Below, piece after piece: positions 9,855-42,893 of a DNA stretch of 64,000 bases; within the stretch, counting starts at the first letter, position 1, and each line of letters starts with the position of its first letter. The DNA comes from an uncultured bacterium (lineage in GTDB: Bacteria > Patescibacteriota > Minisyncoccia > Phycocordibacterales > UBA6065): positions 117,458 to 181,457 of the forward strand of contig CBIMES010000002.1 in the NCBI GenBank assembly GCA_966243015.1. The letters run 5' to 3'. Made by a program: the position numbers and the translations under genes. The notes under the pieces are model-generated. The model searched no databases. It was not told the DNA's origin and saw only the letters and a program-made list of their open reading frames with translations.

Positions 9855-9863
9855 AGAGCCGAC

Positions 9864-10658: not shown

Positions 10659-10664
10659 AATGAA

Positions 10665-10698: not shown

Positions 10699-10701
10699 GA
10701 G

Positions 10702-11094: not shown

Positions 11095-11100
11095 AGATAA

Positions 11101-12204
11101 CTAATATTGTACATCAAAAACAAACGGCTCGGCGTTAAGGCCGCCATCGGCGAGAACGTACACGTAGAGCGGAATCTTCATACCCTTGACCGAAGGATCC
11201 TCGAGAACGAGCCTTGCATACTCAAGATCAGAGATGCGAAATGAAAGAGAGGTGCTCTTTGAGGGACCAAGTGTCGTATAAACGCCCTTCAATCCGCCGA
11301 GGTTCTCTCCAGAGAGCGTAATTACATCTCCGTATGAGGGATTCTCGGGCGACACCGAGATTATGCGAGGCGCAGCCACGGGATTGTTCGAAATAACCAT
11401 GTATATAGGCCTTTCGGATACTTGGGATGAGCCCCTGGCATTCGACACAGAGACGGCATACGTCCCTGAAGATACGGCCGGAACAGTAAAGGCGAGGGTT
11501 ATACCGTCCTCGCTTGCCAGACCCGAGACCGTGGTACCGCCGATATGGACGACATTGGTAGCGTCGAGAGCAAAACCCCAACCTTGAAGCCTTGCTAGGC
11601 TACCCGGCTTGTTCTGATAAGGCTGAACTGAGTAAAGAGTAAGGGGGGCCTCATTCGCGCTGCGCTGATAAAACCCTTCAACGCTCGTTTTCGCGATTTC
11701 CTCATCAGAAAGGCTCGTTTGAAACGAAGAAAGGCCGTCCGAAGAAGAAACAGGTGAAAAAAAGGGGGGCGAACTAACTGATTGAGCCCCATAGCTTCTC
11801 ACAAATGACTCATAAGCGCTTCGGGCAGGGGGGACCAAGGTCTCGACACGCGCGTCAGACGTGCCACGGAGACAGGAGGCTCGGGCAAGGGCACCCTCGA
11901 CTGAAGAGCAGAGCCCTTCATCTCCAGTTTCCTCAGCAAGCCTTGTAATACAGTCATTTTTTTCGAAAAGAGAGGCCTGTGGACACGCTGACTCGACAGG
12001 CGAAGGCGACGTCTGGGGCAAGGAAGGACGAGAGGCGAAAAAACAAGGCTTGTTTGAGTCCTCCGACTGGAAGACAAGGCACGCCCCGTCGACCATCGGG
12101 GTTGTGTCGACTGGCTGAATCTTTTCCTTTTTGAGGAAAAACCATACGGCCACAGAGGCGACTGCCAAGATGAGAAGGGAGGCGAGAAAAATTTTCTTGT
12201 TCAC
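11101..12204 (-). CDS. Hypothetical membrane-anchored surface protein with Ig-like (IPT/TIG-like) repeats. A GTG start at 12204 is likely; the track ATG at 12294 would give an N-terminal extension that overlaps the divergent gene.
   Basis: N-terminal TM (KKIFLASLLILAVASVAVWFFLKK), a Ser/Pro-rich linker, and C-terminal beta-rich repeats (…GGTTVSGLASEDGITLAFTVPAVSSGTYAVSVSN… and …ISVSPENPSYGDVITLSGENLGG…). Confidence 0.5.
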   Translation of the reverse strand: MNKKIFLASLLILAVASVAVWFFLKKEKIQPVDTTPMVDGACLVFQSEDSNKPCFFASRPSLPQTSPSPVESACPQASLFEKNDCITRLAEETGDEGLCSSVEGALARASCLRGTSDARVETLVPPARSAYESFVRSYGAQSVSSPPFFSPVSSSDGLSSFQTSLSDEEIAKTSVEGFYQRSANEAPLTLYSVQPYQNKPGSLARLQGWGFALDATNVVHIGGTTVSGLASEDGITLAFTVPAVSSGTYAVSVSNARGSSQVSERPIYMVISNNPVAAPRIISVSPENPSYGDVITLSGENLGGLKGVYTTLGPSKSTSLSFRISDLEYARLVLEDPSVKGMKIPLYVYVLADGGLNAEPFVFDVQY

Positions 12205-12245
12205 ATCAACAGTATAACAAAATAAGTGATATACTGTGACCACAT

Positions 12246-13205
12246 ATGTTTCGAAAGACACTCTCTTTTCTTGGCACGAAGATAGGACTCTCACTTATCG
12301 CGGCACTCGTGATAGTCGTCGCAGCATTCGCCTTCAAAGACATCAATATTTTCAGCGGAGCGTCTAAGAATTCAGCAGCCCTTGTCGCGGAAAAGAGCGC
12401 GACCGAGCAGGTCTTCGAGAAAGACACTGATGGCGACGGGCTCAAAGACTGGGAAGAGGCGCTCTACGGATTCGACATCAACAATCCAGACACCAAAGGG
12501 AATGGCGCGGGTGATCTCAAAGAGATCGAGAAACTCAAAACCGAATCGGCGGAAACCTCTGAGACAGGTGAGACAAGCTCATCTACGCCGACGGCCACCG
12601 ACAGATTCTCGAGGGAGCTTTTCATACGCTACGTCGAGGCGAAGCAGGCAGGTAAGGATATTACGCCCGAGTTGAGCAAAATAATAGCAGACGAGGTCCT
12701 CGCAAAGAGCTACGAGTCGGAGACTCCGGCCTTTGACGATAGTGTCCTCGTCACCGTGTCCACGAACGACACCTCTTTTATAAAGAACTACGGAAACGCG
12801 CTCGGAGCCATCGTGTCAGTGCCGCTTCCCGAAGAGACACCCAACGAGCTCTTCATCCTCGAAGAGATAACGGCCCGAGAGTCGACGACCAAGACCAACA
12901 GGGAAGACCTGGCAAAGCTGCTTGCTCGATACACCAAGATGCGAGACTCCGTAGTTGCGCTCAAGGTGCCGCTCGCGGCCAAAGCCGCCCACGCCCAACT
13001 CGCGCAGGGAATCGAGCTCATGATGGGTGTGGTGATCGGCGTTCAGAACCTCGAGACCGACCCTATCAGCTCACTGCCACGAATCTCCCAATATGAGGAC
13101 GGCGTCGACCTGCTCAGCGCCGGAACCCTGAGACTTCAGCAGTACTTCCTGAAAAGCGGTGTCAGCTTCTCCTCGCGCGACGCGGGTTACATCTTCATGC
13201 AATAA
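12246..13205 (+). CDS. Hypothetical N-terminally membrane-anchored protein, first gene of the T4SS-like locus
   Basis: TM helix LSLIAALVIVVAAFAF, then an acidic region with a DTDGDGLKD-like motif and Ser/Thr-rich linker. No family assignment. Confidence 0.45.
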   Translation: MFRKTLSFLGTKIGLSLIAALVIVVAAFAFKDINIFSGASKNSAALVAEKSATEQVFEKDTDGDGLKDWEEALYGFDINNPDTKGNGAGDLKEIEKLKTESAETSETGETSSSTPTATDRFSRELFIRYVEAKQAGKDITPELSKIIADEVLAKSYESETPAFDDSVLVTVSTNDTSFIKNYGNALGAIVSVPLPEETPNELFILEEITARESTTKTNREDLAKLLARYTKMRDSVVALKVPLAAKAAHAQLAQGIELMMGVVIGVQNLETDPISSLPRISQYEDGVDLLSAGTLRLQQYFLKSGVSFSSRDAGYIFMQ

Positions 13206-13240
13206 AGTGAGATATACTAATGTATAAGCACGAGACACAT

Positions 13241-15670
13241 ATGAAACGCCTCCTCATCAAGATAAGCTCATCTCTCATCATCTTCTCGCTTGTAAGCTCA
13301 AATCTCTTCCTCGCACTCCCCGAGAAGGCCGAAGCCCAGGGCGCCGCCGCCTCGTGTACCGCAGGTTACGTTGCGGCAGGACTCGCTGCGCTGATGGCGG
13401 TTCCCCAGAACATCATCGGAGTACCAAAGTCGCAAGCTGGAGATACGGCCCAGAACGCAGTCACCGGAGGCAGCACGAACGCGATGTCCTTCAATAACTG
13501 CATACTCAAGCCCCTTGGCCAGATGATGGTTATCTCCCTCATCCGAAACATCGGAGCAAGCATCGTCGACTGGGTGAACAGCGGCTTTCAGGGAAAGCCG
13601 TCTTTCGTGACCGACTTCGGAGGCACCCTCCTCAACGCCGCAGACCAGGCAATCGGAAAATTCATCGAGGGAACAGAGCTAGGCTTTCTCTGTAACGACT
13701 TCTCGTTCCAGATTCGCATCGCCCTCGCGCTCAAATACAGCAAGCCGTACCGAGAGGAGATAAGGTGTACGCTTTCGGGAATAGGGGACAACGTAAACAA
13801 TTTCGTCGAAAACAACGGTGGAGCAGGCTGGAACAACTGGCTGCAGCTCACCACCGAGCCAAACAATAACGTATACGGTGCATACCTCGCGGCAGACAGC
13901 GAGCTGGCGCAGCGAGCGCTCACGGCCACGGGACTTCAGGACAAGAAGATCACGATAGGGCAGGGCTTCCTCGACTTCGAAACCTGCGATGAGTACGAGA
14001 CTCCGACCGAGGCCCAGACCCGCTACCTCGAAGAGACGAAGTCTCTCAACACGTCTTCTTCAAACAACGCCTTTGATTCAAGCATCAACGTAAACACCGA
14101 CATAAACAGCTTCGAAAATTCCGGATTTGACGACGGTAGCGGCAATAACAGCATTAACAGCAACACCTTCGACACCTCGGGAGTAAACATCCCATCGTCG
14201 CCGTCATCAGCGACTTTCGACTCAAGCTTCAGCTCAACGGCGACGCCTCAGTGTAAGCCGGGCAAGATGACCTCAAAGACCCCGGGAGGGGTAATCGCGC
14301 GCAAACTCGACTCCGTACTTGGTCAGGGAGAAATCCAGGCGGCAGTGGCAGACGAGATCGACGAGGTTATCGCAGCCACCCTTAACCAGCTCGCTACCAT
14401 GGCGATTCAGGGAGCAGGTGGACTTCTTGGTCTCTCGAAGAAAAGCTCTTCTTCGGGCTCTTCATACATAAACCGATACAGGAGCCAGTACTATTCAGGC
14501 AACAGTGGGTCAACCTCATCGGGAGTCGACACGGCCGAGGACATCTATACCGTAGACGTAGGAGCGTCATCAGCACTCGACGACTATCGAGTAAGCAACT
14601 ATGACGAGGCAAATGCCATTCTCAACAACCCAGACGACGAGGGGCTTCAGGAGATTTACGATACGACAGACGATGCCGTAAACGACGGAATTGACGGTCA
14701 GAAACAGCAGATTGACGCGATAAACAACAAGGCAAACCTCAACACGCAGCAGGAGCTCAACATAGCCCTTCTCGAAAAGACAACTCAGTCATCGGGAGAC
14801 GATGGGTCGCATGCGGTTGACGGCATCAACGACACTTCGAAGTACAAGCCCGGAACAGCGACCTCGAACCAGGACAGCGCGAACCCGTGGTGGGAGGTTG
14901 ATCTCGGCAAGGACCAGAAAATAGATGAGGTGAGAATCTGGAAGTTCAGCGGCAAGGATACGCGATACACGCTCGGAACCTTCCGTGTCATCGTCAAAAA
15001 AGAGAACGGAAACCGATGGACCAGCACTTCTATCAACAGCGCATCGACGGCAAACCCAACCAAGGTAACGGTAGGGCAGACGGGTCGCTATATTCGCATC
15101 GAGAAGAACGCCTACAGCTACTCGTGCGGAAACACGCGATTCCCTCAAACCTGCTACCACCCTCTCCAGCTCGCAGAGGTTAAGGCCATTCAGTTCATAA
15201 GCGCACCAACTGGATCGACAACAACTCCGACAACAGGAAACAATAATGACGAAGAGGAGACAACGGGAGGAGGCACGGTAACGATTCAGACGCCCTCAAT
15301 GACCCAGACGGTGCTGGCAGGGAAGGACGCCGTCCTCGGCGTCGCAGTCAACGCACCTCAGAATACGACCATACCGAGCGTCGAGGTTCGGATCACCTCA
15401 AACGGAAACCCGGCAAACTTCAGCAACGTCTTTCTTAACGCAAACCTGGGGATAAATGTCTCGGGAAAAACTGGCAACGTATCCATCGGGAACGTCCCAG
15501 CGGTCAAACTCACCAATCTCGCCGCCGGAAAATCCTATAATACAAGCCTCGTATTCTCAGGAAAGATACGAGATGACCAGAAGGGGGCTCGATACGAGAT
15601 AACCATCACCGCGCAGGACAAGGACGGAGACCCGATCAGTACTGGCACACTTGATTTTGTAGTAGAATAA
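13241..15670 (+). CDS. Large secreted protein with a C-terminal F5/8 type C (discoidin) domain, a putative surface adhesin
   Basis: Signal peptide MKRLLIKISSSLIIFSLVSSNLFLALPEKAEA. Ser/Asn-rich low-complexity middle. SHAVDGINDTSKY…NPWWEVDLGKDQKIDEVRIW…GRYIRIE matches the discoidin-fold pattern. The track ORF starts 7 codons upstream at 13220. Confidence 0.6.
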   Translation: MKRLLIKISSSLIIFSLVSSNLFLALPEKAEAQGAAASCTAGYVAAGLAALMAVPQNIIGVPKSQAGDTAQNAVTGGSTNAMSFNNCILKPLGQMMVISLIRNIGASIVDWVNSGFQGKPSFVTDFGGTLLNAADQAIGKFIEGTELGFLCNDFSFQIRIALALKYSKPYREEIRCTLSGIGDNVNNFVENNGGAGWNNWLQLTTEPNNNVYGAYLAADSELAQRALTATGLQDKKITIGQGFLDFETCDEYETPTEAQTRYLEETKSLNTSSSNNAFDSSINVNTDINSFENSGFDDGSGNNSINSNTFDTSGVNIPSSPSSATFDSSFSSTATPQCKPGKMTSKTPGGVIARKLDSVLGQGEIQAAVADEIDEVIAATLNQLATMAIQGAGGLLGLSKKSSSSGSSYINRYRSQYYSGNSGSTSSGVDTAEDIYTVDVGASSALDDYRVSNYDEANAILNNPDDEGLQEIYDTTDDAVNDGIDGQKQQIDAINNKANLNTQQELNIALLEKTTQSSGDDGSHAVDGINDTSKYKPGTATSNQDSANPWWEVDLGKDQKIDEVRIWKFSGKDTRYTLGTFRVIVKKENGNRWTSTSINSASTANPTKVTVGQTGRYIRIEKNAYSYSCGNTRFPQTCYHPLQLAEVKAIQFISAPTGSTTTPTTGNNNDEEETTGGGTVTIQTPSMTQTVLAGKDAVLGVAVNAPQNTTIPSVEVRITSNGNPANFSNVFLNANLGINVSGKTGNVSIGNVPAVKLTNLAAGKSYNTSLVFSGKIRDDQKGARYEITITAQDKDGDPISTGTLDFVVE

Positions 15671-15675
15671 GGAGG

Positions 15676-17949
15676 ATGAGAAAGCTCCTCTCTCCATACA
15701 ACCTTATAACGGTCTTGCTCGTTGGAGTGAGTGTGTTTGCCTTGCCCCAGTTTGCCCATGCGGCAATCTGGGACGGCATCCTCAACGGTCTCAATTTCGG
15801 CGCAAATTGGTTCTACGGCCTTATCGCCAAGGTGTTCTGGTGGGGAACCATTCCTCTGACCAGCTGGGTGCTCTGGCTCGTGGGAGTCATGATAGACGGC
15901 ATCATCGCCCTGTCTTCTGACCCGTCTTTCTACAACGCGCCCGCCATATCAGCGTCATGGGGGATAGTCCGCGACGTTTGTAACATGCTGTTCATATTCA
16001 TCCTCATCTACGAGGGAATACGAACCATTCTTAACCTCGGCAACATGGTGAGCGTGAAGACCACCATCGCAGGAGTCATCCTTGCGGCCGTATTCATCAA
16101 CTTCAGCCTCTTCGCGACCAAAGTCGTTATCGACGTCAGCAACATAACCGCAGCATGGTTCATACAGGGCGTTAAGAACGTCGGGGGTACGGAAAGCATC
16201 AGCGATGCAGTCGTCGCATCGCTTCAGATGAAGAAACTCGTCCAGAACAAGGACTACGGCAGGGGAGCGATGACCAAGGAGTCCTTTGTGGCGGGATTGG
16301 CGATGACCGTCCTCAACTGCGTGGCGATATACGTGATGTTCAAAGTCTTCTTCCTCCTTCTCGGAAGGCTCATCACCTTCATGTTCCTCCTCGTTACCGC
16401 ACCAATCGGCTTTGTCGGCCCCCTTCTGCCTCAGCTCAAGAAATACGCCGAGAAGTGGTGGAACGAACTGAACTCGATGGCCATAATGGCGCCAATGTTC
16501 TTCCTGATGCTCTATATCACCCTGTTCATTATCGATCAGGTGGACACCTTCGTGTTCGGAGGAGCGGGATCGGCAGACCCCGTGACCGGATCGAGCTTCG
16601 CCCCGACGAACTACATCATGTTCGCGATCATCATCGCCATGCTGCTCAAGGTACTTGAGATAACCGAGGAATACAGCGGCGAAATGGCAGGGAAGATAGG
16701 TGAGCTGTTCAAGAGCAGCGTGGGCGTGGCCCTCGGTGGCGTAACCGCTGTGGGAGGTGTCATCGGCCGACAGACCCTCGGAAGGGCCGCATTTAACATC
16801 ACTCAAGATGACAAGAAGATGGGCGCACTTCGATCAGAGGCGGCCACAAGCCTGTTCGGCAAAGTGAAGCTTGCCGCAGTTACCAAGGGCGCGTCATCGA
16901 GCTTTGATGCTCGAGCCACAACCGTCGGAGGAAAAGCGTTGGGTGCCTTCAATCCAAAAATAAGCGTTGCCGGTATCTCTGTTGACGCCTCTAAGGTTGG
17001 AAAGACCGAAAGCGGTGGATTTAAAGCTGGTGCAGAGGCATTCGCCAAGAAAGAGAAGGACTGGGCGGAGAAAAATCTCGGCAAGGGCGCAGCAGGGGAG
17101 ATCAATCGAATGCGATTCTCTGAGAGCATGCAGAAGGGAACCCTTCTCACGAATTACAACAAGCTCGCCAATGCTGGTGTTGGCAAGAACGCTTACAAGG
17201 ATGCCTATAGGGATATAGAGAAGGCCGCTCGAGACAACTTCCGAAAGAAGACACTTGAGGATGCAAAGAAGGGCACCAAGGACATCAGCAACAAGATCGT
17301 GGACGAACAGATGGCAATCTACCAGATGGAGGAGGCTATCAAGTCAAATAACAACGACCAGATTAACGCCGCTCTTGAAACAGAGAAGAATAGAATCGAG
17401 GGCATCTGGTCCGAGATGGAGAAAAATGCCCTTGAGAAAAACAAGGCCGCACATATCGAATACAGCCTCACTCAGGTGGAGAAGAGGGTTGCGGAGCCGG
17501 GTCCAGTCGGTGAAGCGGCAAGGGCAACCAAGACATCACTTGAAAAAGAGCTTGCTGATTTGAGGACAAATATGACCGCAGACGAAAAGAATAAGGCAAG
17601 CGAGGAGGCGGAAAAACTCAGATCATACAAAGATTACAAGGAGAAACAGGTCGATGCCGTTAAGTCTGCGATTGAGGAGTCAAACCCTGTCGCAAAGAAG
17701 GAACTCACCAAGGGAGTCATCGGGGTCATAAAGACCAAGAGGATTGGCGAGAGAGAGGAATTCAAAGATGAGGAGGGGAAGAAAAAGAAAGTCGCCCCTA
17801 AGGGAACCCTCAACTGGGAACTCGACAAGAAGAAAACCAGCCTCAAGGAGGCCCAGGAGGAACTCGATGCGATAGAAGGAAAGAAAGAGGAGAAGAAGGA
17901 GGAAAAGAAAGAGGAGAAGAAAGAAGAAGGGGATAGCAAAAAGAAATAA
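15676..17949 (+). CDS. VirB6/TrbL-like polytopic membrane protein with a long charged coiled-coil C-terminal tail
   Basis: GGAGG RBS 6-8 nt upstream. Signal/TM N-terminus, at least 6 predicted TM helices in the first 330 aa, then a roughly 400-aa Lys/Glu-rich tail ending in EEKKEEKKEEKKEEKKEE. It sits upstream of PrgI/VirB4 homologs. Confidence 0.5.
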   Translation: MRKLLSPYNLITVLLVGVSVFALPQFAHAAIWDGILNGLNFGANWFYGLIAKVFWWGTIPLTSWVLWLVGVMIDGIIALSSDPSFYNAPAISASWGIVRDVCNMLFIFILIYEGIRTILNLGNMVSVKTTIAGVILAAVFINFSLFATKVVIDVSNITAAWFIQGVKNVGGTESISDAVVASLQMKKLVQNKDYGRGAMTKESFVAGLAMTVLNCVAIYVMFKVFFLLLGRLITFMFLLVTAPIGFVGPLLPQLKKYAEKWWNELNSMAIMAPMFFLMLYITLFIIDQVDTFVFGGAGSADPVTGSSFAPTNYIMFAIIIAMLLKVLEITEEYSGEMAGKIGELFKSSVGVALGGVTAVGGVIGRQTLGRAAFNITQDDKKMGALRSEAATSLFGKVKLAAVTKGASSSFDARATTVGGKALGAFNPKISVAGISVDASKVGKTESGGFKAGAEAFAKKEKDWAEKNLGKGAAGEINRMRFSESMQKGTLLTNYNKLANAGVGKNAYKDAYRDIEKAARDNFRKKTLEDAKKGTKDISNKIVDEQMAIYQMEEAIKSNNNDQINAALETEKNRIEGIWSEMEKNALEKNKAAHIEYSLTQVEKRVAEPGPVGEAARATKTSLEKELADLRTNMTADEKNKASEEAEKLRSYKDYKEKQVDAVKSAIEESNPVAKKELTKGVIGVIKTKRIGEREEFKDEEGKKKKVAPKGTLNWELDKKKTSLKEAQEELDAIEGKKEEKKEEKKEEKKEEGDSKKK
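17875..17932 (+). repeat. Short tandem purine-rich repeat encoding (K/E)EEKK units at the 3' end of the VirB6-like gene
   Basis: gaggagaagaaggaggaaaagaaagaggagaagaaagaagaagg has GAR-GAR periodicity. Confidence 0.6.
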
Positions 17950-17951
17950 TC

Positions 17952-18611
17952 ATGGACAAAGAACTTCAAACCCGATTTGATTCGCTCCCTGCCGACATAC
18001 AGACGGCGCTTCAGTCGACTGACATCATCGAGAAACTCCAGGCCATCGGAAGAGCCCATGATCTGCACACCGATCAGCTTGGGGGACTGGAAGCATGTGT
18101 GAGCAGAATCATGCTCGGCATAGATAAGACCGATGATTTTGTCGAGAGCATTGAAAACAACCTTAATGTAACGACGGATGATGCCATAAACATAGCGACG
18201 GAGGTAAACACGACCATATTCCTCCCCGTCAGGGAATCCCTCATGAAAATGCAGGCCGCTGGAACAGAAACCCCCGCAATAAGCAACGAACCGACCGTCG
18301 ACGAACACCCCATGAAAGCGGACATCCTCGCCGAGATAGAGGATCCGAAGCCGGTGGCTCAGCCTATATCGTCGATACGACCCGCACCAACCCCCGCAAC
18401 CCCCGTAAACACAGCACTCCCGACAATTGAACCGTCACATCTTCCAACCACCGCATCTCAGCCGAAACCGACCCCGACATTCCAGACTCCGGCACCAAAA
18501 CCCCAGAGCTCCAGTGTCACCAACGAGTTCATAGCGGGGAAGATGACCGAGACCGTGAATATGCCGCCTCAGAAATACAGCGCAGACCCTTACAGGGAAC
18601 CGCTCAACTAG
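17952..18611 (+). CDS. Hypothetical soluble protein with a Pro/Thr-rich C-terminal half (locus member)
   Basis: The start is 3 nt after the upstream stop, suggesting translational coupling. No TM helix. PAPTPATP… proline-rich tail. Confidence 0.45.
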   Translation: MDKELQTRFDSLPADIQTALQSTDIIEKLQAIGRAHDLHTDQLGGLEACVSRIMLGIDKTDDFVESIENNLNVTTDDAINIATEVNTTIFLPVRESLMKMQAAGTETPAISNEPTVDEHPMKADILAEIEDPKPVAQPISSIRPAPTPATPVNTALPTIEPSHLPTTASQPKPTPTFQTPAPKPQSSSVTNEFIAGKMTETVNMPPQKYSADPYREPLN

Positions 18612-18619
18612 GCGAAAAT

Positions 18620-18651
18620 AAAAGGCTCAGTCCACTGAGCCTTTTATTTTT
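18620..18651 (+). terminator. Rho-independent terminator with an adjacent TATAAT -10 element
   Basis: AAAGGCTCAG-tccac-TGAGCCTTTT-ATTTTTG followed by TGTGTATAAT at 18651-18660. Confidence 0.7.
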
Positions 18652-18666
18652 GTGTATAATGAACTC

Positions 18667-19113
18667 ATGCGATTCCAGGTTCCTCAGTTCATCGAGGTGG
18701 AGGACAAGATCTTCGGCCCCCTCACCATCAAGCAGTTCATCTACCTCGTTGGAGGCGCGGGACTTTCCTTTATTGCCTACACTCTCATAGGCAACATATT
18801 CATCAGCGTCATCTTCATCCTGCCGATCATGGGCCTTTCGCTCGCCCTGGCGTTCTATAAGGTCAACAACAAGCCGCTCATCAACGTCATCGAGGCCGCA
18901 TTCAACTACTTCGTGAGCAACAAGCTCTATATCTGGAAGAAAATCGACAAGCCAATAGAAAATAAGGCCCGGGAGAACCCAGCAGGGGACCTGACCTCAA
19001 ACTTCTACATACCAAAGCTGTCTGACTCGAAGCTCAAGGATCTCACCTGGAGCCTCGACATCAAGCAGAGCGCGAACCCAGCGCAGAACCAACAGGGCAA
19101 GAAAACATTTTAG
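18667..19113 (+). CDS. PrgI-family (VirB3-like) small membrane protein
   Basis: MRFQVPQFIEVEDKIFGPLTIKQFIYLVGGAGLSFIAY… matches the PrgI family pattern (vP.dl...edKiffgLt.rQ..yl). It has two TM helices and sits immediately upstream of a VirB4 homolog, as prgI-prgJ does. The track ORF starts at 18652 (GTG). ATG 18667 is preferred and lies only about 6 nt after TATAAT, so the mRNA may be leaderless. Confidence 0.6.
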   Translation: MRFQVPQFIEVEDKIFGPLTIKQFIYLVGGAGLSFIAYTLIGNIFISVIFILPIMGLSLALAFYKVNNKPLINVIEAAFNYFVSNKLYIWKKIDKPIENKARENPAGDLTSNFYIPKLSDSKLKDLTWSLDIKQSANPAQNQQGKKTF

Positions 19114-19130
19114 GCGGTATACTATAGCTC

Positions 19131-19766
19131 ATGGCGCTTAACGCGAAGACAACACAGGAGTTCGTTCCGATAAAGGAAATCCGACAGGGAATCGTCATCC
19201 TCCGCGACGACTCTCTGCGAGGCGTCGTCATGGCGTCATCGCTCAACTTCGCCCTCAAATCGGCCGACGAGCAGCAGTCAATCATCTTTCAATTCCAGAA
19301 CTTCATCAACTCGCTCGACTTCTCGGTGCAGATCTTTATCCAGTCTCGTAAGCTCGACATCAGGCCATACATCGCCCTTCTCGAGAACAGGCTTCGCGAG
19401 CAGATGAGCGATCTCCTCAAGATCCAGACGCGCGAGTACATCGAGTTCGTGAAGAACTTCACCGAGAACTCGAACATCATGACAAAGACCTTCTTCATCG
19501 TCGTACCGTACAGCCCGACGGTCGTCTCGAAGGGAAGCGTGCCGAACCCGCTCGGCAAGAAGAAGACGGGGGAGGAGACCGCCGAGCGAAGACTCGAGCT
19601 CTTCGAGGAGCATCGCAGCCAGCTCGAGCAGCGTATCAGCGTCGTCACCCAAGGTCTTAGCCGCTGCGGAATCCGCAGCGTCGAGCTGGGAACGGAGGAG
19701 ATCGTCGAGCTCTTCTACAAGATCTTCAATCCGGGCGACACCGAGAAGCCTATACCTCTCAACTAA
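19131..19766 (+). CDS. VirB4/TrbE/PrgJ-like ATPase, N-terminal domain fragment (211 aa)
   Basis: TQEFVPIKEIRQGIVILRDDSLRGVVMASSLNFALKSADEQQSIIFQFQNFINSLDFSVQIFIQSRKLDI is the characteristic N-terminus of Gram-positive-type VirB4 proteins. It ends at TAA 19764-19766, 4 nt before the next ATG. Confidence 0.7.
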   Translation: MALNAKTTQEFVPIKEIRQGIVILRDDSLRGVVMASSLNFALKSADEQQSIIFQFQNFINSLDFSVQIFIQSRKLDIRPYIALLENRLREQMSDLLKIQTREYIEFVKNFTENSNIMTKTFFIVVPYSPTVVSKGSVPNPLGKKKTGEETAERRLELFEEHRSQLEQRISVVTQGLSRCGIRSVELGTEEIVELFYKIFNPGDTEKPIPLN

Positions 19767-19770
19767 ACAC

Positions 19771-21576
19771 ATGGGAATCTTCGATTTTCTAAAAAAGAAA
19801 GAGAATAACATCAACATCTCCCCGGTTCTTCCGCAGGAGATTTACGAGGCGGGCGTGCTCGAGCTCAAGGACGTTATCGCGCCGTCGGCCCTCAAGGTCA
19901 CGCCGCGCGAGCTTAATCTCGGAGACAAAATCGTCCGAAGCTTCTTCGTCATCTCATACCCTCGATATCTCTCAGAGTCATGGTTCGCACCGATCATCAA
20001 CCTCGACAAGGTCTTCAACATTTCCATATTTGTCCACCCCGTCGACACCGCTCGAGTTCTCCGCCAGTTCCAGAAGAAAGTGGCCGAGGTGCAGAGCCAG
20101 ATCTCCATCAGGGAGCAGAAGGGCCTCGTCCGCGACCCGATGCTCGACACCGCGTACCAGGATCTCGAGGGCCTGCGCGACCAGCTCCAGCAGGCGCAGG
20201 AGAAGCTCTTTGACGTGGGCATCTACATCTCAATCTACGCCGACAGCGACGCAGAGCTCGATAAGACTGAGAGCGAGATCAAGTCGATTCTCGAGTCAAA
20301 GCTCGTGTACGTAAAGCCGGCGCTCTTCCAGCAGGAACAGGGGTACCGCAGCAACCTACCGACGGCAAACGACGAGCTCCTTGTCCATTCCAAGCTTAAC
20401 TCAAGCCCTCTTTCGTCACTTTTCCCGTTCATATCCTTCGACCTCACCTCTGACAAGGGAATCCTCTACGGCATCAACAGGCACAACTCGTCGCTCGTGC
20501 TCTTCGATCGCTTCTCGCTCGAGAACTACAACTCGATTACCTTCGCGAAGTCAGGTTCGGGTAAGTCATACGCCACCAAGCTCGAGATTCTCCGAACGCT
20601 CATGTTCGACACCGAGGTGATCGTCATCGACCCGGAGAGGGAATACGAGTACCTTGCCGAGGCAACGGGAGGAAAGTACTTCAACATCTCCCTCAACTCC
20701 GAGCATCACATCAACCCGTTCGACCTGCCAATCCCGCGCGAGGACGAGTCGACCGCCGACGTGCTTCGCTCGAACATCATCAACCTCGTAGGACTCTTCC
20801 GCATAATGATGGGAGGCCTGACCCCCGAGGAAGACGCGCTCATCGATAAGGCGATCACCGAAACCTACGCGCTCAAGGACATCACGCCTGACTCAGACTT
20901 CAGGAACACCGAACCGCCGCTCCTGTCTGACTTCGAGCTCGTGCTTGCCGGCATGGAGGGAGGGGAGTCGCTCGTGCAGAGGCTGACCAAATACACCAAG
21001 GGAACCTGGTCTGGCTTCATCAACAGGCCGACAAACGTCGACATTAACGCGAAGTTCATCGTCTTCTCGCTCCGAGACATGGAGGAGGAGCTCAAGCCCG
21101 TCGCGATGTACATCGTGACCCACTACATCTGGAACGCGGTGCGCAAGAACCTCAAGAAGCGCCTGCTCGTCATCGACGAGGCGTGGTGGATGATGAAGTC
21201 GGACGACACCGCGTCGTTCCTCCTCGGACTCGCCAAGCGAGGCCGAAAGTACTTCCTCGGACTGGCGACCATTACCCAGGACGTGGACGACTTCCTCAAG
21301 TCGCCGTACGGAATGCCGATTATCACCAACTCGTCGATACAGATGCTGCTCAAGCAGTCCCCATCGTCGATCGACAAGCTTCAGACGGTCTTCAACCTCA
21401 CGGAAGAGGAAAAATACCTCCTTCTCGAGTCAGACGTGGGAGAGGGAATCTTCTTCGTGGGACTTAAGCACGTGGCCATCAAGATTATCGCCTCGTACAC
21501 CGAGGACCAAATCATCACCTCTGACCCTTCGCAGATTCTCGCCATCAAGGAAGCGAAAAGAAACCTTCAGGGGTAG
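19771..21576 (+). CDS. VirB4/TrbE/PrgJ-like ATPase, ATPase portion (601 aa)
   Basis: …LKDVIAPSALKV…YPRYLSESWF…, Walker A FAKSGSGKSYA, Walker B LLVIDEAWWMM, and C-terminal …GLATITQDVDDF… form the VirB4 (CagE_TrbE_VirB) architecture. Together with 19131..19766 it totals about 812 aa, typical of a single VirB4. Confidence 0.8.
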   Translation: MGIFDFLKKKENNINISPVLPQEIYEAGVLELKDVIAPSALKVTPRELNLGDKIVRSFFVISYPRYLSESWFAPIINLDKVFNISIFVHPVDTARVLRQFQKKVAEVQSQISIREQKGLVRDPMLDTAYQDLEGLRDQLQQAQEKLFDVGIYISIYADSDAELDKTESEIKSILESKLVYVKPALFQQEQGYRSNLPTANDELLVHSKLNSSPLSSLFPFISFDLTSDKGILYGINRHNSSLVLFDRFSLENYNSITFAKSGSGKSYATKLEILRTLMFDTEVIVIDPEREYEYLAEATGGKYFNISLNSEHHINPFDLPIPREDESTADVLRSNIINLVGLFRIMMGGLTPEEDALIDKAITETYALKDITPDSDFRNTEPPLLSDFELVLAGMEGGESLVQRLTKYTKGTWSGFINRPTNVDINAKFIVFSLRDMEEELKPVAMYIVTHYIWNAVRKNLKKRLLVIDEAWWMMKSDDTASFLLGLAKRGRKYFLGLATITQDVDDFLKSPYGMPIITNSSIQMLLKQSPSSIDKLQTVFNLTEEEKYLLLESDVGEGIFFVGLKHVAIKIIASYTEDQIITSDPSQILAIKEAKRNLQG

Positions 21577-21624
21577 GGGAGCGGTGGATTGGCGCGCGGG
21601 GTTTCGTGCTACAATATACTCGTC

Positions 21625-22623
21625 ATGCTTCTCAAAAGGATATCTCTTATCTTTGCTTTTGTCGGTGTACTCCTCTCATGCTCCTTTGCCCATGCTCAGT
21701 CTATTCCAGGCATACAGAATCCTCTCGTCGTGAGCGTCATACCGACCGAACCGAGGGCCAATCAGACGGTCTATATCGGCATTCAGAGCTACAGCCTTGA
21801 TCTCGACAAGGCTCTCATCACTTGGTACGTAGACGGCAAGGAAACATCGAGCGGGGTCGGCCTCAAGGAATTCAGGGTACTCGCCGGACCGTCGGGTTCG
21901 ACCAAGACGGTCGACGTAAAGGTGGCAACCGTGGGCACAGGAACCTTCTCCGATACCGTCGTCATCAGGCCGGCAGACGTTGGCCTCCTCTGGGAATCTG
22001 ACACCTACACCCCTCCTTTCTACCAGGGAAAGGCTCTTCATTCTTACAACGGCTCCTTCAAAGTTACCGCGTTGCCAGAGCTCTACACTTCGGCGGGCGC
22101 AAAGATTGATGCGAAGGACTTGATCTACACCTGGAAAAAGAACGGTGAGATTCAGGGTGCCGCATCTGGATACGGCAAGAACACCTATATCGGCAGCCAG
22201 ACGAGCTACCTCAGGGAAGGGGAGGATATCTCCGTTGAGGTGTCAGCGCCGCGAGACAACGTGGTCGCCTCAAACAGCATCCTCATCACGCCAGCGGTGC
22301 CTTACGTATCGTTCTACGAGAAGAGCCCTCTCTACGGAATCATCTACGAAAAGAGCCTTCGCAACAGGACCAGCCTGACCAACGAGGAGGTCTCGATCAT
22401 CGCCGAGCCATTCTTCTTCTCAATTCCAAACCGAGACTCCTCGAACCTCTCGTATACCTGGACCCTCAACGGCAGCCCCCTCCCTGACTTCTCGGGAGAG
22501 AGTCTCATGACGCTCCGAAAGGCGGGCGGGGAAGCGGGAAGGGCTGATCTTCGCGTCGTCCTGCAGAACAACATGAAGCTCCTTCAGGGCGCCTCGCAGA
22601 ACCTAACCATTTTCTATGAATAA
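21625..22623 (+). CDS. Hypothetical secreted beta-rich protein (locus member)
   Basis: Signal peptide MLLKRISLIFAFVGVLLSCSFAHAQS. No TM helix afterwards. No family assignment. Confidence 0.45.
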   Translation: MLLKRISLIFAFVGVLLSCSFAHAQSIPGIQNPLVVSVIPTEPRANQTVYIGIQSYSLDLDKALITWYVDGKETSSGVGLKEFRVLAGPSGSTKTVDVKVATVGTGTFSDTVVIRPADVGLLWESDTYTPPFYQGKALHSYNGSFKVTALPELYTSAGAKIDAKDLIYTWKKNGEIQGAASGYGKNTYIGSQTSYLREGEDISVEVSAPRDNVVASNSILITPAVPYVSFYEKSPLYGIIYEKSLRNRTSLTNEEVSIIAEPFFFSIPNRDSSNLSYTWTLNGSPLPDFSGESLMTLRKAGGEAGRADLRVVLQNNMKLLQGASQNLTIFYE

Positions 22624-23821
22624 AACCCGAGCACTCGCCATCGCCTCAGCAAGCATCGTCACGCTCTTCGCGGGCTGGGCAACTGTCGCGTCGGCACAGA
22701 CAACCGAATACGTTCCCCTCACGACGGTTCCCGGCCTCTTCAAGCAGGGAAGCTCGACCAACCCCGTCACCATCATCAAGGGAATCTACGGACTGGCCAT
22801 CGGCATCGGCAGCGTCATCGCCACTGTCATGCTCATCATCGCCGGCTTCGAGTATATGTACCAGGAGTCAATCACGGGAAAGTCACAGGCAAAGGAGCGC
22901 ATCACCAATGCGTTTCTCGGTCTCTTGGTCATCCTTGGATCGTACATACTCCTCCGAACTATCAACCCAGCACTTGTAGACTTCAACCTCACACTCCAGG
23001 GTGGCAGCAATCGACTCAAGGGACTGATTGCCGACAAGGCATATGACGATCTAAGGGAAAGGCAGAAGGCCTTGCAGGAAGATCAGACCGCCATCAACAA
23101 GCTCAAGGCAAATGGCGTGGAAATGGAGAAGCTGATTGAGCAGAAAGAGGACACCATGCGCGGCTACGACTGCGAGAACGAGGATAAGGCTGATTGCGAG
23201 AGAATCGAGAAAGAGATCGCCGAGCTTGAAACGCGAGTAAAAGAGAACACGGACAACATCGCCGCAACGCAAATAGAGCAGGGAAAGGGGATTGCCTCGA
23301 CCTATGTGTACGAACTCCTCGAAACCAGGTATTGGGAGCTCGCCGGCAAGCTCAGACAGGACAACGGTCAGGGGGAGCTTGAGTTCGACGAATTCCTTCA
23401 GGCAGCCTCAGCCGCATACAAGAGCTCAATCGACGGCGTGGAGAAACAGCTGGTCGCCATAAAAGCCGTACAGACGAACGATGCCGGGATCCTGAAACAA
23501 AAGACGGATACCATCAGAGACCTCGAGAACGAGAAAAAATATCTCGCCCTCGCCGCTACGTACGTCATTTGGCAGAACAGCTATGACAATAACGGCCTCG
23601 ATCTCACGGATCTAGCGAACAGCATCAAGTACAGGACTGATGCCTACACAAAGAAGCTCAAGGAGGCGGGTTTCAGCAACGAGTTCATCGAGGAGCGCGT
23701 AAAACGCGACAGAACCAATCTCATAACCGCATTCTCGATGTCTGAGGAGGTACAGGAAGACTGCGCATCAAATACCGATGTGCTCCCGGCCGACTACGCA
23801 CAGCTCTGCTCAAACGCATAA
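22616..23821 (+). CDS. VirB2/TrbC-like T4SS pilin-like protein with a roughly 270-aa C-terminal coiled-coil extension
   Basis: Signal peptide (…VASA|Q) is followed by two hydrophobic helices (IYGLAIGIGSVIATVMLIIAGFEYMY and ITNAFLGLLVILGSYILLRTI), the classic T4SS pilin topology. The C-terminal part is coiled-coil-like. The start overlaps the upstream gene by 8 nt. Confidence 0.5.
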   Translation: MNKTRALAIASASIVTLFAGWATVASAQTTEYVPLTTVPGLFKQGSSTNPVTIIKGIYGLAIGIGSVIATVMLIIAGFEYMYQESITGKSQAKERITNAFLGLLVILGSYILLRTINPALVDFNLTLQGGSNRLKGLIADKAYDDLRERQKALQEDQTAINKLKANGVEMEKLIEQKEDTMRGYDCENEDKADCERIEKEIAELETRVKENTDNIAATQIEQGKGIASTYVYELLETRYWELAGKLRQDNGQGELEFDEFLQAASAAYKSSIDGVEKQLVAIKAVQTNDAGILKQKTDTIRDLENEKKYLALAATYVIWQNSYDNNGLDLTDLANSIKYRTDAYTKKLKEAGFSNEFIEERVKRDRTNLITAFSMSEEVQEDCASNTDVLPADYAQLCSNA

Positions 23822-23827
23822 AACAAC

Positions 23828-25060
23828 ATGTCGAAAAAAACATTCACGCTCTTCATCATAGTACTCCTGGGAATCATCGCCTTCCTCGGCTGGTTCTTTT
23901 TCTTCCGCGCGAATGAGTCAACGCTTCCCGGTGACCCCAACCAGCCGACCGACCTCTTTCCCTTTGGGCAGGGGAGCACAACCCCTGATGGAAACAACAC
24001 GGGGCAAACGGGCAGCTCGACGGGGCAGATAGACATCTCGGGTGACACCCCACGCCTTCCTCGACTAAGACAAATCTGGCGAGACCAGACCGCAGGCGCC
24101 ACGTTCTTTCCAGGCACGGGAACCACGACAAGCGTGAGGTTCGTCGACAGAGCAACGGGTCACATCTACGAGTCTCCTATCGAGGCGACGGGGGAGACCA
24201 AGATATCGAACGTCACCATCCCACAGGTGCACGAAGCGCTTTGGGCATCAAACGGAAACGAGCTCATCTTCCGCTACCTCAGGAGCGATTCGATGACGAT
24301 ACAGTCGTTCTATGGAACGCTCGCCACATCGAGCGCCACTACAACCATGACGGTGGAAGGTTACTTCTTGCCCGCAAACATCCGCGACATCTCGGTATCA
24401 GGCGACAGGATTCTCTATTTCAACCCAGCCGTTCAGATCGGAAGCCTCGTCGACGCACGCGTCGACGGCACAGGAAGACGCGTGGTCATGAGCTCCGAGG
24501 CACGAGACTGGTCTCTCTCATACACCAACACAAAAACCGCATTCCTCGAAACCAGGCCAAGCGGTCTCGTAAAGGGATTCGGCTACGCCCTTAACCTCGC
24601 CACGGGAGCGACTTCAAAAATAGCTGGTGACATACTCGGTCTCACCGGAACCATAAACCCAGCAGGGGACAGAGCGCTTATGTCAGCGCAGGAGGGCGGA
24701 AGCATCGTCACGGCAGGCTACGACATGACGTCAAAGAGGGCCTCCACCCTTTCCATCAAAACCCTTTCCGACAAATGCGTGTGGAGCAGGAAAAAGGCCG
24801 AGATGGCATACTGCGCAGTGCCCTCAAACATTCCGTCGGGAACATATCCTGATGACTGGTATCGAGGCGACACGAGCTTCTCCGATCGACTCTGGACCGT
24901 CGACCTCTCGACAGGGGAGACCGATCTCATCATGGACCCATCCTATGAGACCGGCCAGAGCATGGACATCATGAAAATCAGCGTGGACAGCGGGGAGGAG
25001 TACATTACATTCACCAACAAGAAGGACATGAGCCAGTGGCTGCTGAGGATCGAGGAATAA
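23828..25060 (+). CDS. Hypothetical N-terminally anchored extracytoplasmic beta-rich protein (last locus gene)
   Basis: TM helix FTLFIIVLLGIIAFLGWFFFF, then a Gly/Thr-rich linker and a roughly 330-aa domain. A bidirectional terminator follows. Confidence 0.45.
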   Translation: MSKKTFTLFIIVLLGIIAFLGWFFFFRANESTLPGDPNQPTDLFPFGQGSTTPDGNNTGQTGSSTGQIDISGDTPRLPRLRQIWRDQTAGATFFPGTGTTTSVRFVDRATGHIYESPIEATGETKISNVTIPQVHEALWASNGNELIFRYLRSDSMTIQSFYGTLATSSATTTMTVEGYFLPANIRDISVSGDRILYFNPAVQIGSLVDARVDGTGRRVVMSSEARDWSLSYTNTKTAFLETRPSGLVKGFGYALNLATGATSKIAGDILGLTGTINPAGDRALMSAQEGGSIVTAGYDMTSKRASTLSIKTLSDKCVWSRKKAEMAYCAVPSNIPSGTYPDDWYRGDTSFSDRLWTVDLSTGETDLIMDPSYETGQSMDIMKISVDSGEEYITFTNKKDMSQWLLRIEE

Positions 25061-25106: not shown

Positions 25107-25862
25107 CTATCTAACCTTCACCGCCAAATTCTCCTTCGCCTCCTTCTCCCGCGCCATCTGCCGTCGGATGTACAGCTCCTGCCCGATCATGAACAGGTTG
25201 CTCGTCACCCAGTACAGGGCGAGGGCCGAGGCCACGTGGTAGGCGATGAAGAGGATCATGATAGGGAAGACGTACTTCATCTGAGTCTGCATGTTGCGGG
25301 CGAAGTCCTCCTGGAAGTTGCCGTTGCCGGTCTTGGGGGCAGCCTTTGGTATCGAGAGCCTTATCTGGAAGTACTGGGAGACCGCCGCGAGAACCGCGAG
25401 AGCGAAGCTTTTGGTACCCATGTCTATGAGACCAAGGAAGTTCATGTTAACAACCTCAGGAACCTTAACGAACGAGTAGAGGAGACTCGGGTCAGGCGCC
25501 GAAATGCCTGACGAATAAAAGATTCGATACAAGGCGAAGAAGATAGGAAGCTGGAGAAGGATAAGGAAGATGCCGGCAAACGGGTTTATGCCCTTTGCCT
25601 TGTAGAAGGCCATGACCTGAAGCGCCTGCGCCTGCCGATCGTCCTTGTACTTCTCCTTGATGGCATTCATCTCGGGCTCGTACATCTTGAGGGCAACCTG
25701 GGTGCGGGCAGACTTTCTCGAAAGAGGGAAGAGGATGACCTTAACGATAACCGTGAAGAGGATAATGACGACGCCTGCGTCGAGGAAGGGGAGGTGGCCG
25801 GCGAGGAATACAAGACCGTTATAGAGGGGCTCGTAGATGAACGTAGTATAAAGATAATGCAT
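25107..25862 (-). CDS. yidC: Membrane protein insertase YidC/Oxa1 (short form)
   Basis: 251 aa and multi-TM. Its position downstream of rnpA and rpmH is the conserved rpmH-rnpA-yidC arrangement. Hydrophobic core motifs are typical of the 60-kDa IMP family. Confidence 0.8.
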   Translation of the reverse strand: MHYLYTTFIYEPLYNGLVFLAGHLPFLDAGVVIILFTVIVKVILFPLSRKSARTQVALKMYEPEMNAIKEKYKDDRQAQALQVMAFYKAKGINPFAGIFLILLQLPIFFALYRIFYSSGISAPDPSLLYSFVKVPEVVNMNFLGLIDMGTKSFALAVLAAVSQYFQIRLSIPKAAPKTGNGNFQEDFARNMQTQMKYVFPIMILFIAYHVASALALYWVTSNLFMIGQELYIRRQMAREKEAKENLAVKVR

Positions 25863-25915
25863 ATGATTATTGTGCGGGCTAAGCCATAGTAGCCTATTTC
25901 AGACCCTTACTCAAT

Positions 25916-26242
25916 CTACGCGAGACCAGCTTTTTTCAACGTAGCCTGTATATCAGAGGAAACCGCTTCAGGGGAAGCGGCTAGACACTCCTTCTTAGGG
26001 AGAATCATGGCAAATACCGGTGTTTTAAGGCTTTTCTTTGCGGACCTGAGGGCAAGATACACCTTTCGGCGCACGGAATTCCTGTCGACGGCCCTGGCTG
26101 CCACTTTTTTGGACACAGGCACGGCGAACTTCGCCCTCTCGGCGGGAACGAAGCGCAAAGAAAGAAGCGTCCCGAAGACGCTTTTTCCTTGAGAGAGAGC
26201 TGCTACCTCTTTTGTGGTGAGACGGTCAGCCTTCCTGAGCAT
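25916..26242 (-). CDS. rnpA: Ribonuclease P protein component
   Basis: 108 aa basic protein. …FAVPVSKKVAARAVDRNSVRRKVYLALR… matches the RnpA RNR motif region. It lies between rpmH and yidC. Confidence 0.8.
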   Translation of the reverse strand: MLRKADRLTTKEVAALSQGKSVFGTLLSLRFVPAERAKFAVPVSKKVAARAVDRNSVRRKVYLALRSAKKSLKTPVFAMILPKKECLAASPEAVSSDIQATLKKAGLA

Positions 26243-26245
26243 GGG

Positions 26246-26383
26246 TTAGATCTTAACAATCTTCTTTCGACCCTTCTGTCGTCGTCGGACGAGCACCTTC
26301 TTGCCGGTAGGGGAGTTCTTTCGGGCAAGGAAGCCATGGGCTCGAGCGCGCTTCCTGTTCTTTGTTTTGTATACGATTGCCAT
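26246..26383 (-). CDS. rpmH: 50S ribosomal protein L34 (not in the supplied ORF track because it is under 60 aa)
   Basis: The reverse strand translates to MAIVYKTKNRKRARAHGFLARKNSPTGKKVLVRRRQKGRKKIVKI, the L34 signature. It is directly upstream of rnpA and divergent from dnaA. Confidence 0.85.
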   Translation of the reverse strand: MAIVYKTKNRKRARAHGFLARKNSPTGKKVLVRRRQKGRKKIVKI

Positions 26384-27847: not shown

Positions 27848-28120
27848 CTGGGGATAAACTTGTTAATAAGTGGGTATAAGCTTGTGGGTAAGTTTATACA
27901 CAGACTGTGAATTGCCTGGGGATGGAATCTAACAAACTGTGGATGATTTTGAAGGATGGGGAATAGCCCCTGTTTCTATTCGCGAGAACTCCACAGGAAC
28001 ACGTCCTTATAATGCCATCAAACCCTTACAGATAAACGTTTTATGGGTTATACACATATCCCCAGTGATTATAGAAATAGTAGTTATTCTTTAAATATAT
28101 AAGAGAGATATACTAGGAAC
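27848..28120. promoter_or_regulatory. oriC: Candidate oriC: AT-rich dnaA-dnaN spacer with multiple DnaA-box-like 9-mers and an AT-rich DUE
   Basis: One-mismatch variants of TGTGGATAA/TTATCCACA occur at about 27849 (TGGGGATAA), 27885 (TGTGGGTAA), 27894 (TTATACACA), 27935 (TGTGGATGA) and 28045 (TTATACACA). An A/T-rich stretch (atagaaatagtagttattctttaaatatataagag) lies at about 28070-28112. The rpmH-rnpA-yidC | dnaA-dnaN context supports it. Confidence 0.6.
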
Positions 28121-42887: not shown

Positions 42888-42893
42888 CACTGT

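Follow-up and report, generated by a model that had tools for sequence, protein, structure and literature searches.

A compact type IV secretion system (T4SS) locus was analysed in a stretch of 64,000 nt, here called the window, from an uncultured bacterium (Patescibacteriota; Minisyncoccia; Phycocordibacterales; UBA6065), corresponding to positions 117,458 to 181,457 on the forward strand of contig CBIMES010000002.1 in assembly GCA_966243015.1. All coordinates given below refer to the window. Ten large open reading frames (ORFs), named g1 to g10, are packed on the plus strand at 12246-25060 and code for proteins of 319, 816, 757, 219, 153, 211, 601, 344, 401 and 410 amino acids (aa), respectively. 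An earlier note on this DNA, made from the sequence and ORF translations, had counted eleven co-directional ORFs; the ORF layout gives ten. The tight packing which it described was found, with gaps of -8 to +40 nt between neighbours, and as far as the sequence tells, this gene layout is that of one operon. Five of the ten genes code for recognisable T4SS parts: a VirB6-like protein (g3), PrgI/VirB3 (g5), a TrsD-like protein (g6), VirB4 (g7) and a pilin (g9). Four of these, VirB6, PrgI, VirB4 and the pilin, had been named correctly before, while the 211-aa g6, a TrsD or VirB4 N-terminal domain, had been overlooked. In the profile searches that had been proposed as a check, PrgI, VirB4 and the pilin matched Pfam or NCBIfam models directly, and VirB6 was recognised via its orthologues, a profile and its predicted fold. 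A weak sigma-70-like promoter site, obtained by a consensus scan at 12206..12235 (+; TCAACA, 18-nt spacer, TATACT, extended -10 TG), ends 10 nt upstream of g1 within a divergent spacer of 40 bp. The evidence for this site is weak, the count of promoter-like sites in the region being not above the shuffled expectation. The last gene, g10, is convergent with yidC.

Motor, platform and pilin

The VirB4 ATPase of 601 aa, encoded by g7 (19771..21576, +), is of the CD1110 or MPF_FATA type. It matched P-loop_TraG in Pfam (1.7e-26) and the NCBIfam model 'VirB4-like, CD1110 family' with 377 bits (cutoff 325), the alignment covering model positions 185-733. Walker A (GSGKS, residue 262) and Walker B (VIDEAW, residue 467) are intact, hence the locus has the VirB4-family ATPase that marks a T4SS of any class. 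Both motifs were unchanged across 79 VirB4 sequences, in which 54 % of the positions were conserved to at least 95 %. The neighbouring gene g6 (19131..19766, +) was assigned by NCBIfam and hhalign comparisons as a TrsD-like, separately encoded VirB4 N-terminal domain. It matched VirB4_plasma, the VirB4 model of the Mycoplasma integrative and conjugative element (ICE), at 4e-12 over model positions 101-233, and aligned to positions 2-118 of the CD1110 model; the value against the TrsD model, 9.5e-5, fell short of the curated cutoff and was counted as homology, not as a cutoff-level match. TrsD is a component of the pGO1 subclass. Judged by these alignments, g6 supplies the N-terminal part that is absent from g7 as a separate gene. 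The best 120 database matches of g7, out of 8000 candidates scored, had 84-100 % identity and carried almost exclusively source names of Paceibacterota, Parcubacteria, Taylorbacteria or Patescibacteria, and the nearest plasmid VirB4 had 36 % identity. Match identities and names, a proxy in place of a tree, group g7 with the VirB4s of Patescibacteria and not with those of plasmids or ICEs.

An extended VirB6/TrbL-like polytopic membrane protein of 757 aa is encoded by g3 (15676..17949, +). It consists of a signal peptide, a helical transmembrane domain (residues ~30-410) and a charged coiled-coil tail of ~350 aa that ends in (KEEKK)n, a tail that the earlier note had described and that is evident in the sequence. 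By itself, g3 gave no match in direct Pfam and NCBIfam searches. A full-length orthologue profile against the PDB returned coiled-coil noise only and was replaced by a profile of the transmembrane domain and a fold model. By four independent tests of sequence and model, g3 is VirB6-like. TrbL was matched by 9 of 55 orthologues in Pfam, and TrbL-type Pfam domains (PF04610, PF19590 or PF19597) were present in 12 of 78 database homologues. With the membrane-domain profile, the top sequence in the PDB was TrwI/VirB6 of R388 (E 3.8e-4). The AlphaFold2 (AF2) model (pLDDT 81.5, pTM 0.71) was compared to the PDB with Foldseek, and the five best matches were all R388 TrwI chains (probability 0.99-1.0, E 0.009-0.03, target TM-score 0.40-0.44). 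Profile and fold thus lead to the R388 stalk base (PDB 7O3V, 8RT9, 8RTD); in comparison to TrwI, g3 is twice as long and possesses the charged tail.

The two-transmembrane protein of the PrgI/VirB3 family (g5, 153 aa, 18652..19113, +) lies two genes 5' of VirB4 and matched PF12666 at 2.4e-10 with 41.3 bits (cutoff 27). Two genes 3' of VirB4, g9 (22616..23821, +) codes for a VirB2-like pilin of 401 aa, which matched PF18895 (T4SS_pilin) at 3.2e-7 with 30.8 bits (cutoff 26.6). Weak NCBIfam matches were obtained to the Mbov_0395 pilin-like model of the Mycoplasma ICE (3.2e-4) and to pLS20_p028 (2.6e-4). A signal peptide is followed by the two-helix pilin domain (residues ~47-115) and a C-terminal helical extension of ~285 aa; the total length of the orthologues varies from 210 to 555 aa. 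In a six-frame search, g9 was the sole ORF of the window with a pilin domain.

Accessory proteins

The largest product of the locus is the secreted 816-aa protein of g2 (13220..15670, +), assigned by its F5_F8_type_C_2 match and by orthologue profiles. A helical, cysteine-containing N-terminal domain of ~320 aa (residues ~90-410) is joined by a low-complexity linker to a discoidin (F5/8 type C) lectin domain (522-631) and a C-terminal beta-rich region. The discoidin domain, already suspected from the sequence, was confirmed at 2.7e-12 (47.6 bits, F5_F8_type_C_2). Only 7 of 47 orthologues possess it, the others having Ig-like modules or nothing in its place. When the profile of the N-terminal domain was searched against clusters made at 50 % identity, 6283 matched; E<=1e-30 was reached by 4076, most of which are ~490 aa long. 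The domain thus represents a large family for which Pfam and NCBIfam have no model. Conserved cysteine residues and a W-I-N-S-G-F-x-G-x-P motif characterise this domain (13220-14540). Its AF2 model was all-helical and of low confidence (pLDDT 62.6) and had no convincing fold neighbour in the PDB.

Three further accessories are lineage-specific and carry a membrane anchor or a secretion signal. The 344-aa product of g8 (21589..22623, +), secreted or anchored, consists of three tandem repeats of ~105 aa (self-hhalign 97 %). Orthologues matched BiPBP_C (10 of 58), Ig_3 and PKD_3, and the profile gave Hoc at 0.004 in the PDB, weak indications that the repeats may be Ig-like. In g10 (410 aa, 23828..25060, +), a transmembrane anchor precedes a putative beta-propeller. 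The profile reached TolB in the PDB at 0.0046, orthologues matched DPPIV_N, PD40 and DUF5050, and residues C317 and C329 are invariant; on this weak evidence the propeller may be TolB/PD40-like. The 319-aa product of g1 (12246..13205, +; TSP3_bac 0.0039) is held by an N-terminal transmembrane anchor and combines a calcium-binding DxDxDG motif, TSP3- or EF-hand-like, with a domain of ~200 aa without a recognised fold. Its orthologue profile found calcium-binding loops only in the PDB. At the same position, 26 of 40 related loci code for such a protein, with 20-36 % identity.

The smallest accessory, g4 (219 aa, 17952..18611, +), was delimited by orthologue alignment. It has no transmembrane segment, is probably located in the cytoplasm and had no Pfam, NCBIfam or PDB match. 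A helical N-terminal domain of ~100 aa and a proline-rich linker are followed by the C-terminal motif DPYREP, of which D212, Y214 and E216 are unchanged in 39 orthologues. In its position at the extreme C-terminus, behind a disordered proline-rich linker, the motif resembles a partner-docking peptide.

Components of other T4SSs were sought among these proteins. Profiles of g1, g2, g4, g8 and g10 yielded no VirB8 or NTF2 match in the PDB. Where a VirB8 or VirB1 might be concealed among g1, g4, g8 and g10, the profiles provided hints of calcium-binding loops, Ig-like and TolB-like folds only. A hydrolase domain of the VirB1 type was found in none of the proteins g1 to g10 with Pfam and NCBIfam, and a VirB5 partner was not recognisable in the locus. 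The nearest hydrolase is an M23 peptidase with two LysM domains (6681-7640, -), 4.6 kb upstream, which is a candidate surrogate for VirB1.

Conservation, described systems and relatives

When one genome of each species was scanned, 582 loci were obtained, of which the best 80 were retained; synteny was counted in the 40 with full flanks of 10 kb. The gene order UvrD-KsgA-[g1..g10]-YidC(-)-DnaA-DnaN recurs in these 40 species-level genomes, so the synteny comparison that the earlier note had asked for revealed a conserved block. PrgI, TrsD, VirB4, g8 and g10 were found in all 40 loci, g3 in 38, g2 (by its N-terminal domain) in 37 and g9 in 36; g1 and g4 were detected in 26 each, at the sensitivity limit of tblastn. 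The g6-type gene was an ORF of its own in 40 of 40. Median identities to the window proteins were 83 % for VirB4, 64 % for TrsD, 61 % for DnaA, 55 % for PrgI, 49 % for DnaN and 47 % for YidC, and 27-35 % for g1, g2, g3, g4, g8, g9 and g10. VirB4 had 80-94 % identity and ranked above DnaA in every one of the 40 loci. As read from the sequences, this pattern is characteristic of a machine passed on by vertical descent and kept under strong selection, the exterior of which evolves fast; it is not what a mobile element or remnant would show. In one related locus (L077, ~8881-12400), TrsD and VirB4 are inverted relative to the remaining cluster and the flanks, either a real inversion or a mis-assembly.

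The system is not a new one. For the Saccharibacterium Southlakia epibionticum, Wang et al. 2023 (Cell, PMC10633639) described a T4SS cluster close to the origin. It resembles Gram-positive conjugative systems, contains essential pilins, has no recognisable relaxase or coupling protein and is needed for epibiotic growth according to transposon sequencing (Tn-seq). Quinonero-Coronel et al. 2025 (Microb Genom, PMC12102498) analysed 3035 Patescibacteria genomes. The 2425 VirB4s formed a monophyletic group nested in MPF_FATA, with TrsD, PrgI/VirB3, VirB6 and VirB2-like pilins as common partners, and the virB4 genes were located near dnaA, dnaN, ksgA, rnpA and rpmH in Paceibacteria, the best-represented class, and in other classes. 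VirB8 was rarely found outside the class ABY1, and relaxases numbered only 109. The patescibacterial systems are listed in a review of 2025 as the newest subgroup of T4SSs (PMC12857230). The window locus is this already described Patescibacteria T4SS of 2023-2025, without essential difference from the clade in PMC12102498, where the g2 N-terminal domain, g8, g10, g1 and g4 were not characterised. Since PMC10633639 and PMC12102498 describe the same system, every element of the interpretation in the earlier note had already been published.

The cluster of S. epibionticum ML1 (SEML1_0006-0019) shares with the window locus the order VirB6-like, PrgI, TrsD-like, VirB4, pilins of PF18895 and the proximity to the origin. 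It differs in having six short tandem pilins in contrast to the single long-tailed pilin of 401 aa, as well as two VirB6-like proteins, an NTF2-like protein and, 3' of VirB4, a lysozyme and a 1113-aa protein; the window locus has g8-g10 there and no hydrolase in the operon. Conjugative systems of the MPF_FATA class (CTn2/CD1110, pCF10 Prg/Pcf, pGO1 Trs) have the same VirB6-PrgI-(x)-VirB4 order, and g7 scores above the CD1110 cutoff. Near VirB4, they encode a coupling protein (VirD4), a relaxase and a wall hydrolase of the VirB1 type, all of which are missing from the window locus, which in turn has the pilin. Their VirB4 is full-length or differently organised, whereas that of the window is split into g6 and g7. 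The mismatch to the textbook subunit sets that had been noticed earlier therefore does not extend to the core, VirB6-PrgI-TrsD-VirB4, which is that of MPF_FATA; the extracellular accessories are indeed unusual.

Among 72,556 plasmids searched, the best VirB4 matches had 28-36 % identity and came all from monoderm hosts, among them Streptomyces, Embleya, Pontibacillus, Priestia, Clostridium and Bacillus. In the Embleya plasmid, a type IV coupling protein (T4CP), a relaxase-like gene and an NlpC/P60 hydrolase are placed directly 3' of VirB4. On the C. botulinum plasmid pCDC3875, VirD4 lies 5' of VirB6-PrgI-x-VirB4 and an SLT hydrolase downstream. The slots after VirB4, filled in the window by g8-g10, are thus taken by T4CP, relaxase-like and hydrolase genes in the conjugative Embleya system and by a hydrolase in C. 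botulinum. The best full-length match, 34 % over 99 % of VirB4, was on the megaplasmid NZ_CP062975 of Pontibacillus sp. ALD_SL1 (351.8-361.4 kb). The gene order there is pilin, pilin, a 779-aa polytopic protein, a 116-aa and a 274-aa protein, a 621-aa VirB4 and a 1050-aa M23 peptidase. Comparison by hhalign gave 96-97 % for g9 and the two pilins, 92 % for g3 and the 779-aa protein, 91 % for g5, 99.6 % for g6 and the 274-aa protein, and 100 % for g7. From this order and these profile matches it follows that a split VirB4 and a VirB2-like pilin co-occur also in a Firmicute locus. Neither relaxase nor T4CP was found within 12 kb of it, and the replicon was typed as non-mobilizable. Patescibacteria would accordingly not be the only monoderms that have T4SSs with a pilin and no relaxase. 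The Pontibacillus locus is situated beside flagellar genes, the window locus beside oriC. With the ten profiles and hhalign, no counterparts of g1, g2, g4, g8 and g10 were found beside VirB4 in the Pontibacillus and C. botulinum plasmids.

Function and genomic surroundings

The locus is in all probability the Paceibacteria/Parcubacteria version of a chromosomally fixed, relaxase-free and non-conjugative patescibacterial T4SS. The earlier note had arrived at a fixed, non-conjugative T4SS of a reduced episymbiont, and the synteny in 40 species, the invariant motifs and the window without relaxase and T4CP support this view, as does the organism itself, which belongs to the Patescibacteria of Paceibacteria/Parcubacteria type when judged by the source names attached to its nearest proteins and loci. 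The latter result was obtained by a Pfam scan across the 64 kb, which covered 50 larger ORFs, the ten locus genes and 40 others; neither a MOB relaxase nor a VirD4/TcpA coupling protein was among them, as had been claimed, and the other large P-loop proteins of the window were UvrD, ComM-like, DnaA, RuvB and PilB only. By analogy to S. epibionticum, the locus is probably required for host-dependent growth.

A mechanism may be proposed that draws on the genetics of Saccharibacteria and on pilus biogenesis in R388, for which a structural model reportedly exists. VirB4, to which TrsD would contribute the detached N-terminal domain and PrgI/VirB3 the tether, would pull the VirB2-like pilin out of the membrane. 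On the platform of VirB6 and VirB3, the pilin would be loaded and polymerised into a surface fibre or stalk. The exposed surface would then be formed by the helical tail of the pilin and the fast-evolving proteins g1, g2, g8 and g10, arranged around the fibre or capping it. Lectin and Ig modules of g2 may bind glycans of the host envelope, and the accessories would fasten the very small cell to its host cell. The channel would exchange macromolecules between host and symbiont instead of conjugating DNA.

Several observations weigh against this interpretation. A VirB8-like or VirB1-like component was not recognised in the operon, and the ~285-aa extension of g9 may fit poorly into the canonical packing of a VirB2 pilus. 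To our knowledge, a filament of this system has never been observed. As similarity of VirB4 was the criterion by which the related loci had been ranked, the identities reported above are slightly biased towards high values for VirB4. A T4CP or a relaxase could be encoded elsewhere in the genome, outside of the 64 kb, and VirD4-like matches were located far from virB4 in most genomes (PMC12102498). Finally, the essentiality was established in another class, Saccharimonadia, whose cluster differs from the one in Paceibacteria (PMC10633639).

Within the interpretation as a fixed T4SS, the apparatus may import, export effectors or serve chiefly for attachment. One refinement, which we regard as tentative, is an import machine akin to Ced or ComB, by which host DNA, nucleotides or other macromolecules are drawn into a symbiont unable to make them. 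The ComB system of H. pylori and the archaeal Ced system are chromosomal, non-mobile and without relaxase or coupling protein; ComB has VirB7-10 and Ced uses CedA/A1/A2. The lack of relaxase and T4CP at the window locus is the pattern known from this family of T4SS-type DNA importers, and the ATPase core of g7 matched the CedB model weakly (3.3e-8, 32.6 bits), however far below the cutoff of 700. Pfam and NCBIfam revealed no VirB7, VirB9 or VirB10 in g1-g10, in contrast to ComB; an outer-membrane complex of these proteins is not expected since the organism is a monoderm. ComM-like and PilB genes are present in the window outside of the cluster. A DNA-binding or nuclease component is not recognisable in the operon. 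We know of no patescibacterial system for which import has been demonstrated. Import is the preferred hypothesis in PMC12102498. Against it stands that in S. epibionticum the ComEC-dependent competence is dispensable and the T4SS essential (PMC12857230); this disfavours a role coupled to ComEC-dependent uptake, though not a ComEC-independent import.

A transport in the opposite direction, with effector proteins injected into or released onto a host bacterium so as to lyse or subvert it, in the manner of the antibacterial X-T4SS or the T4SSs of pathogens, appears rather unlikely. Protein export or an alternative role was suggested by Wang et al. 2023 (PMC10633639), and fast-evolving surface modules, such as the discoidin domain restricted to 7 of 47 g2 orthologues, would suit a host-specific targeting. 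However, nearly all effector translocators require VirD4, which was not found in the window, and the exceptions, Ptl and the VirB system of Brucella, rely on a periplasmic step that is absent in a monoderm (PMC12857230). Candidate effector or immunity genes were not recognisable in or beside the operon.

That the operon belongs to an ordinary conjugative element, an ICE or integrated plasmid with relaxase, T4CP and integrase located outside of it, is very improbable. VirB4 falls into the conjugation family CD1110, a T4CP can be encoded distant from virB4 (PMC12102498), and the window contains a UvrD helicase (7902-9854, Pfam scan) and a tyrosine recombinase of the XerC/D type with SAM-like N-terminal domains (1176-2111, -), the only integrase-family gene of the window. 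Yet the recombinase lies 10 kb upstream, beyond core genes, and is therefore not adjacent. Direct repeats around the locus were not above chance level, as the earlier note had stated for integrase and repeats alike; there is no tRNA gene within 17 kb of the locus that could serve as target, and the GC content of 0.52-0.56 matches that of the flanks without a shift in composition. The housekeeping neighbours are constant in 40 species, VirB4 exceeds DnaA in conservation, the opposite of the patchy history of a mobile element, and only 109 relaxases were counted in the 3035 genomes of Patescibacteria (PMC12102498). A decaying, functionless remnant of an ancient conjugative element, to which the missing T4CP, relaxase, VirB8 and VirB1 might point, is effectively refuted by the conservation data, with ten intact and tightly packed ORFs, the invariant Walker motifs and VirB4 positions, and a block that is kept in genomes under strong reduction.

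Patescibacteria, which live attached to other microbes, represent a large share of the bacterial diversity; the T4SS is among the few machines that all of them keep and is essential in the single model that has been cultured. The window locus does not add a new kind of system, it provides a clean and complete ten-gene example from Paceibacteria together with a quantified conservation gradient, and a list of uncharacterised accessory families as candidate parts of the host recognition. The interest that remains resides in these families, in the cargo and in the Firmicute look-alike locus with its bearing on the origin of the pilin. It is conceivable, although we would not count on it, that four or five of the fast-evolving accessories (g2, g8, g10, g1, g4), which always accompany the core in Paceibacteria, together constitute an extracellular module that has so far not been described for the patescibacterial T4SS. 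If so, this module would replace the missing VirB8, VirB1, VirB5 and adhesins, and g2 might act in the manner of VirB5, as an adhesin at the tip or stalk, with the host range determined by its exchangeable lectin modules. Loci of the Pontibacillus type would, in this view, imply that relaxase-free T4SSs with a pilin exist in Firmicutes as well and that the pilin came down together with the monoderm system and was not borrowed from diderms.

The operon is embedded in the core chromosome next to the presumed origin of replication. Upstream, ksgA (9864-10658) follows uvrD. Divergent from g1, a secreted IPT/TIG-domain protein is encoded at 11101-12205 (-); its translation probably begins with the GTG at 12205 and not at 12294. 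Only 10 of the 40 related loci have such a gene in this place. Downstream, yidC, rnpA and rpmH occupy 25107-26383 (-), dnaA starts at 26504 and dnaN at 28121. The distance of about 1.4 kb to dnaA given in the earlier note was measured as 1.44 kb from the end of the last gene. Five DnaA-box-like 9-mers at 27849..28056, in the spacer between dnaA and dnaN, indicate a probable oriC; of the ten such 9-mers in the window (at most one mismatch), these five lie within 210 bp, ~2.8 kb past the end of the operon. This clustering was used as origin marker, and GC and AT skews were dropped because they follow the gene orientation. The operon, uvrD and ksgA are located left of the probable oriC on the plus strand, an orientation that is the same in 39 of the 40 related loci; the operon is thus read in the direction of the origin and meets the leftward replication fork head-on.

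Other housekeeping genes of the window code, among others, for a nuclease of the exo/endonuclease-phosphatase family, PBP1, a class-I aminoacyl-tRNA synthetase (Trp/Tyr-type), YebC, RuvAB, PolA, HolA, Fpg, a Mur ligase, FolD and NusG, in addition to the ComM-like protein and PilB. The latter, a PilB/GspE-type ATPase (36323-38008, -; T2SSE 1.3e-119), places a type IV pilus system also in proximity to the origin. At 42815-42888 (+), ARAGORN reported a 'tRNA-Stop, anticodon tta', and Rfam an ordinary tRNA with 69 bits. A suppressor tRNA was rejected: the loop CTTTTAA is that of a standard tRNA-Lys(UUU), and the ARAGORN call is most likely a mis-registration by one base.

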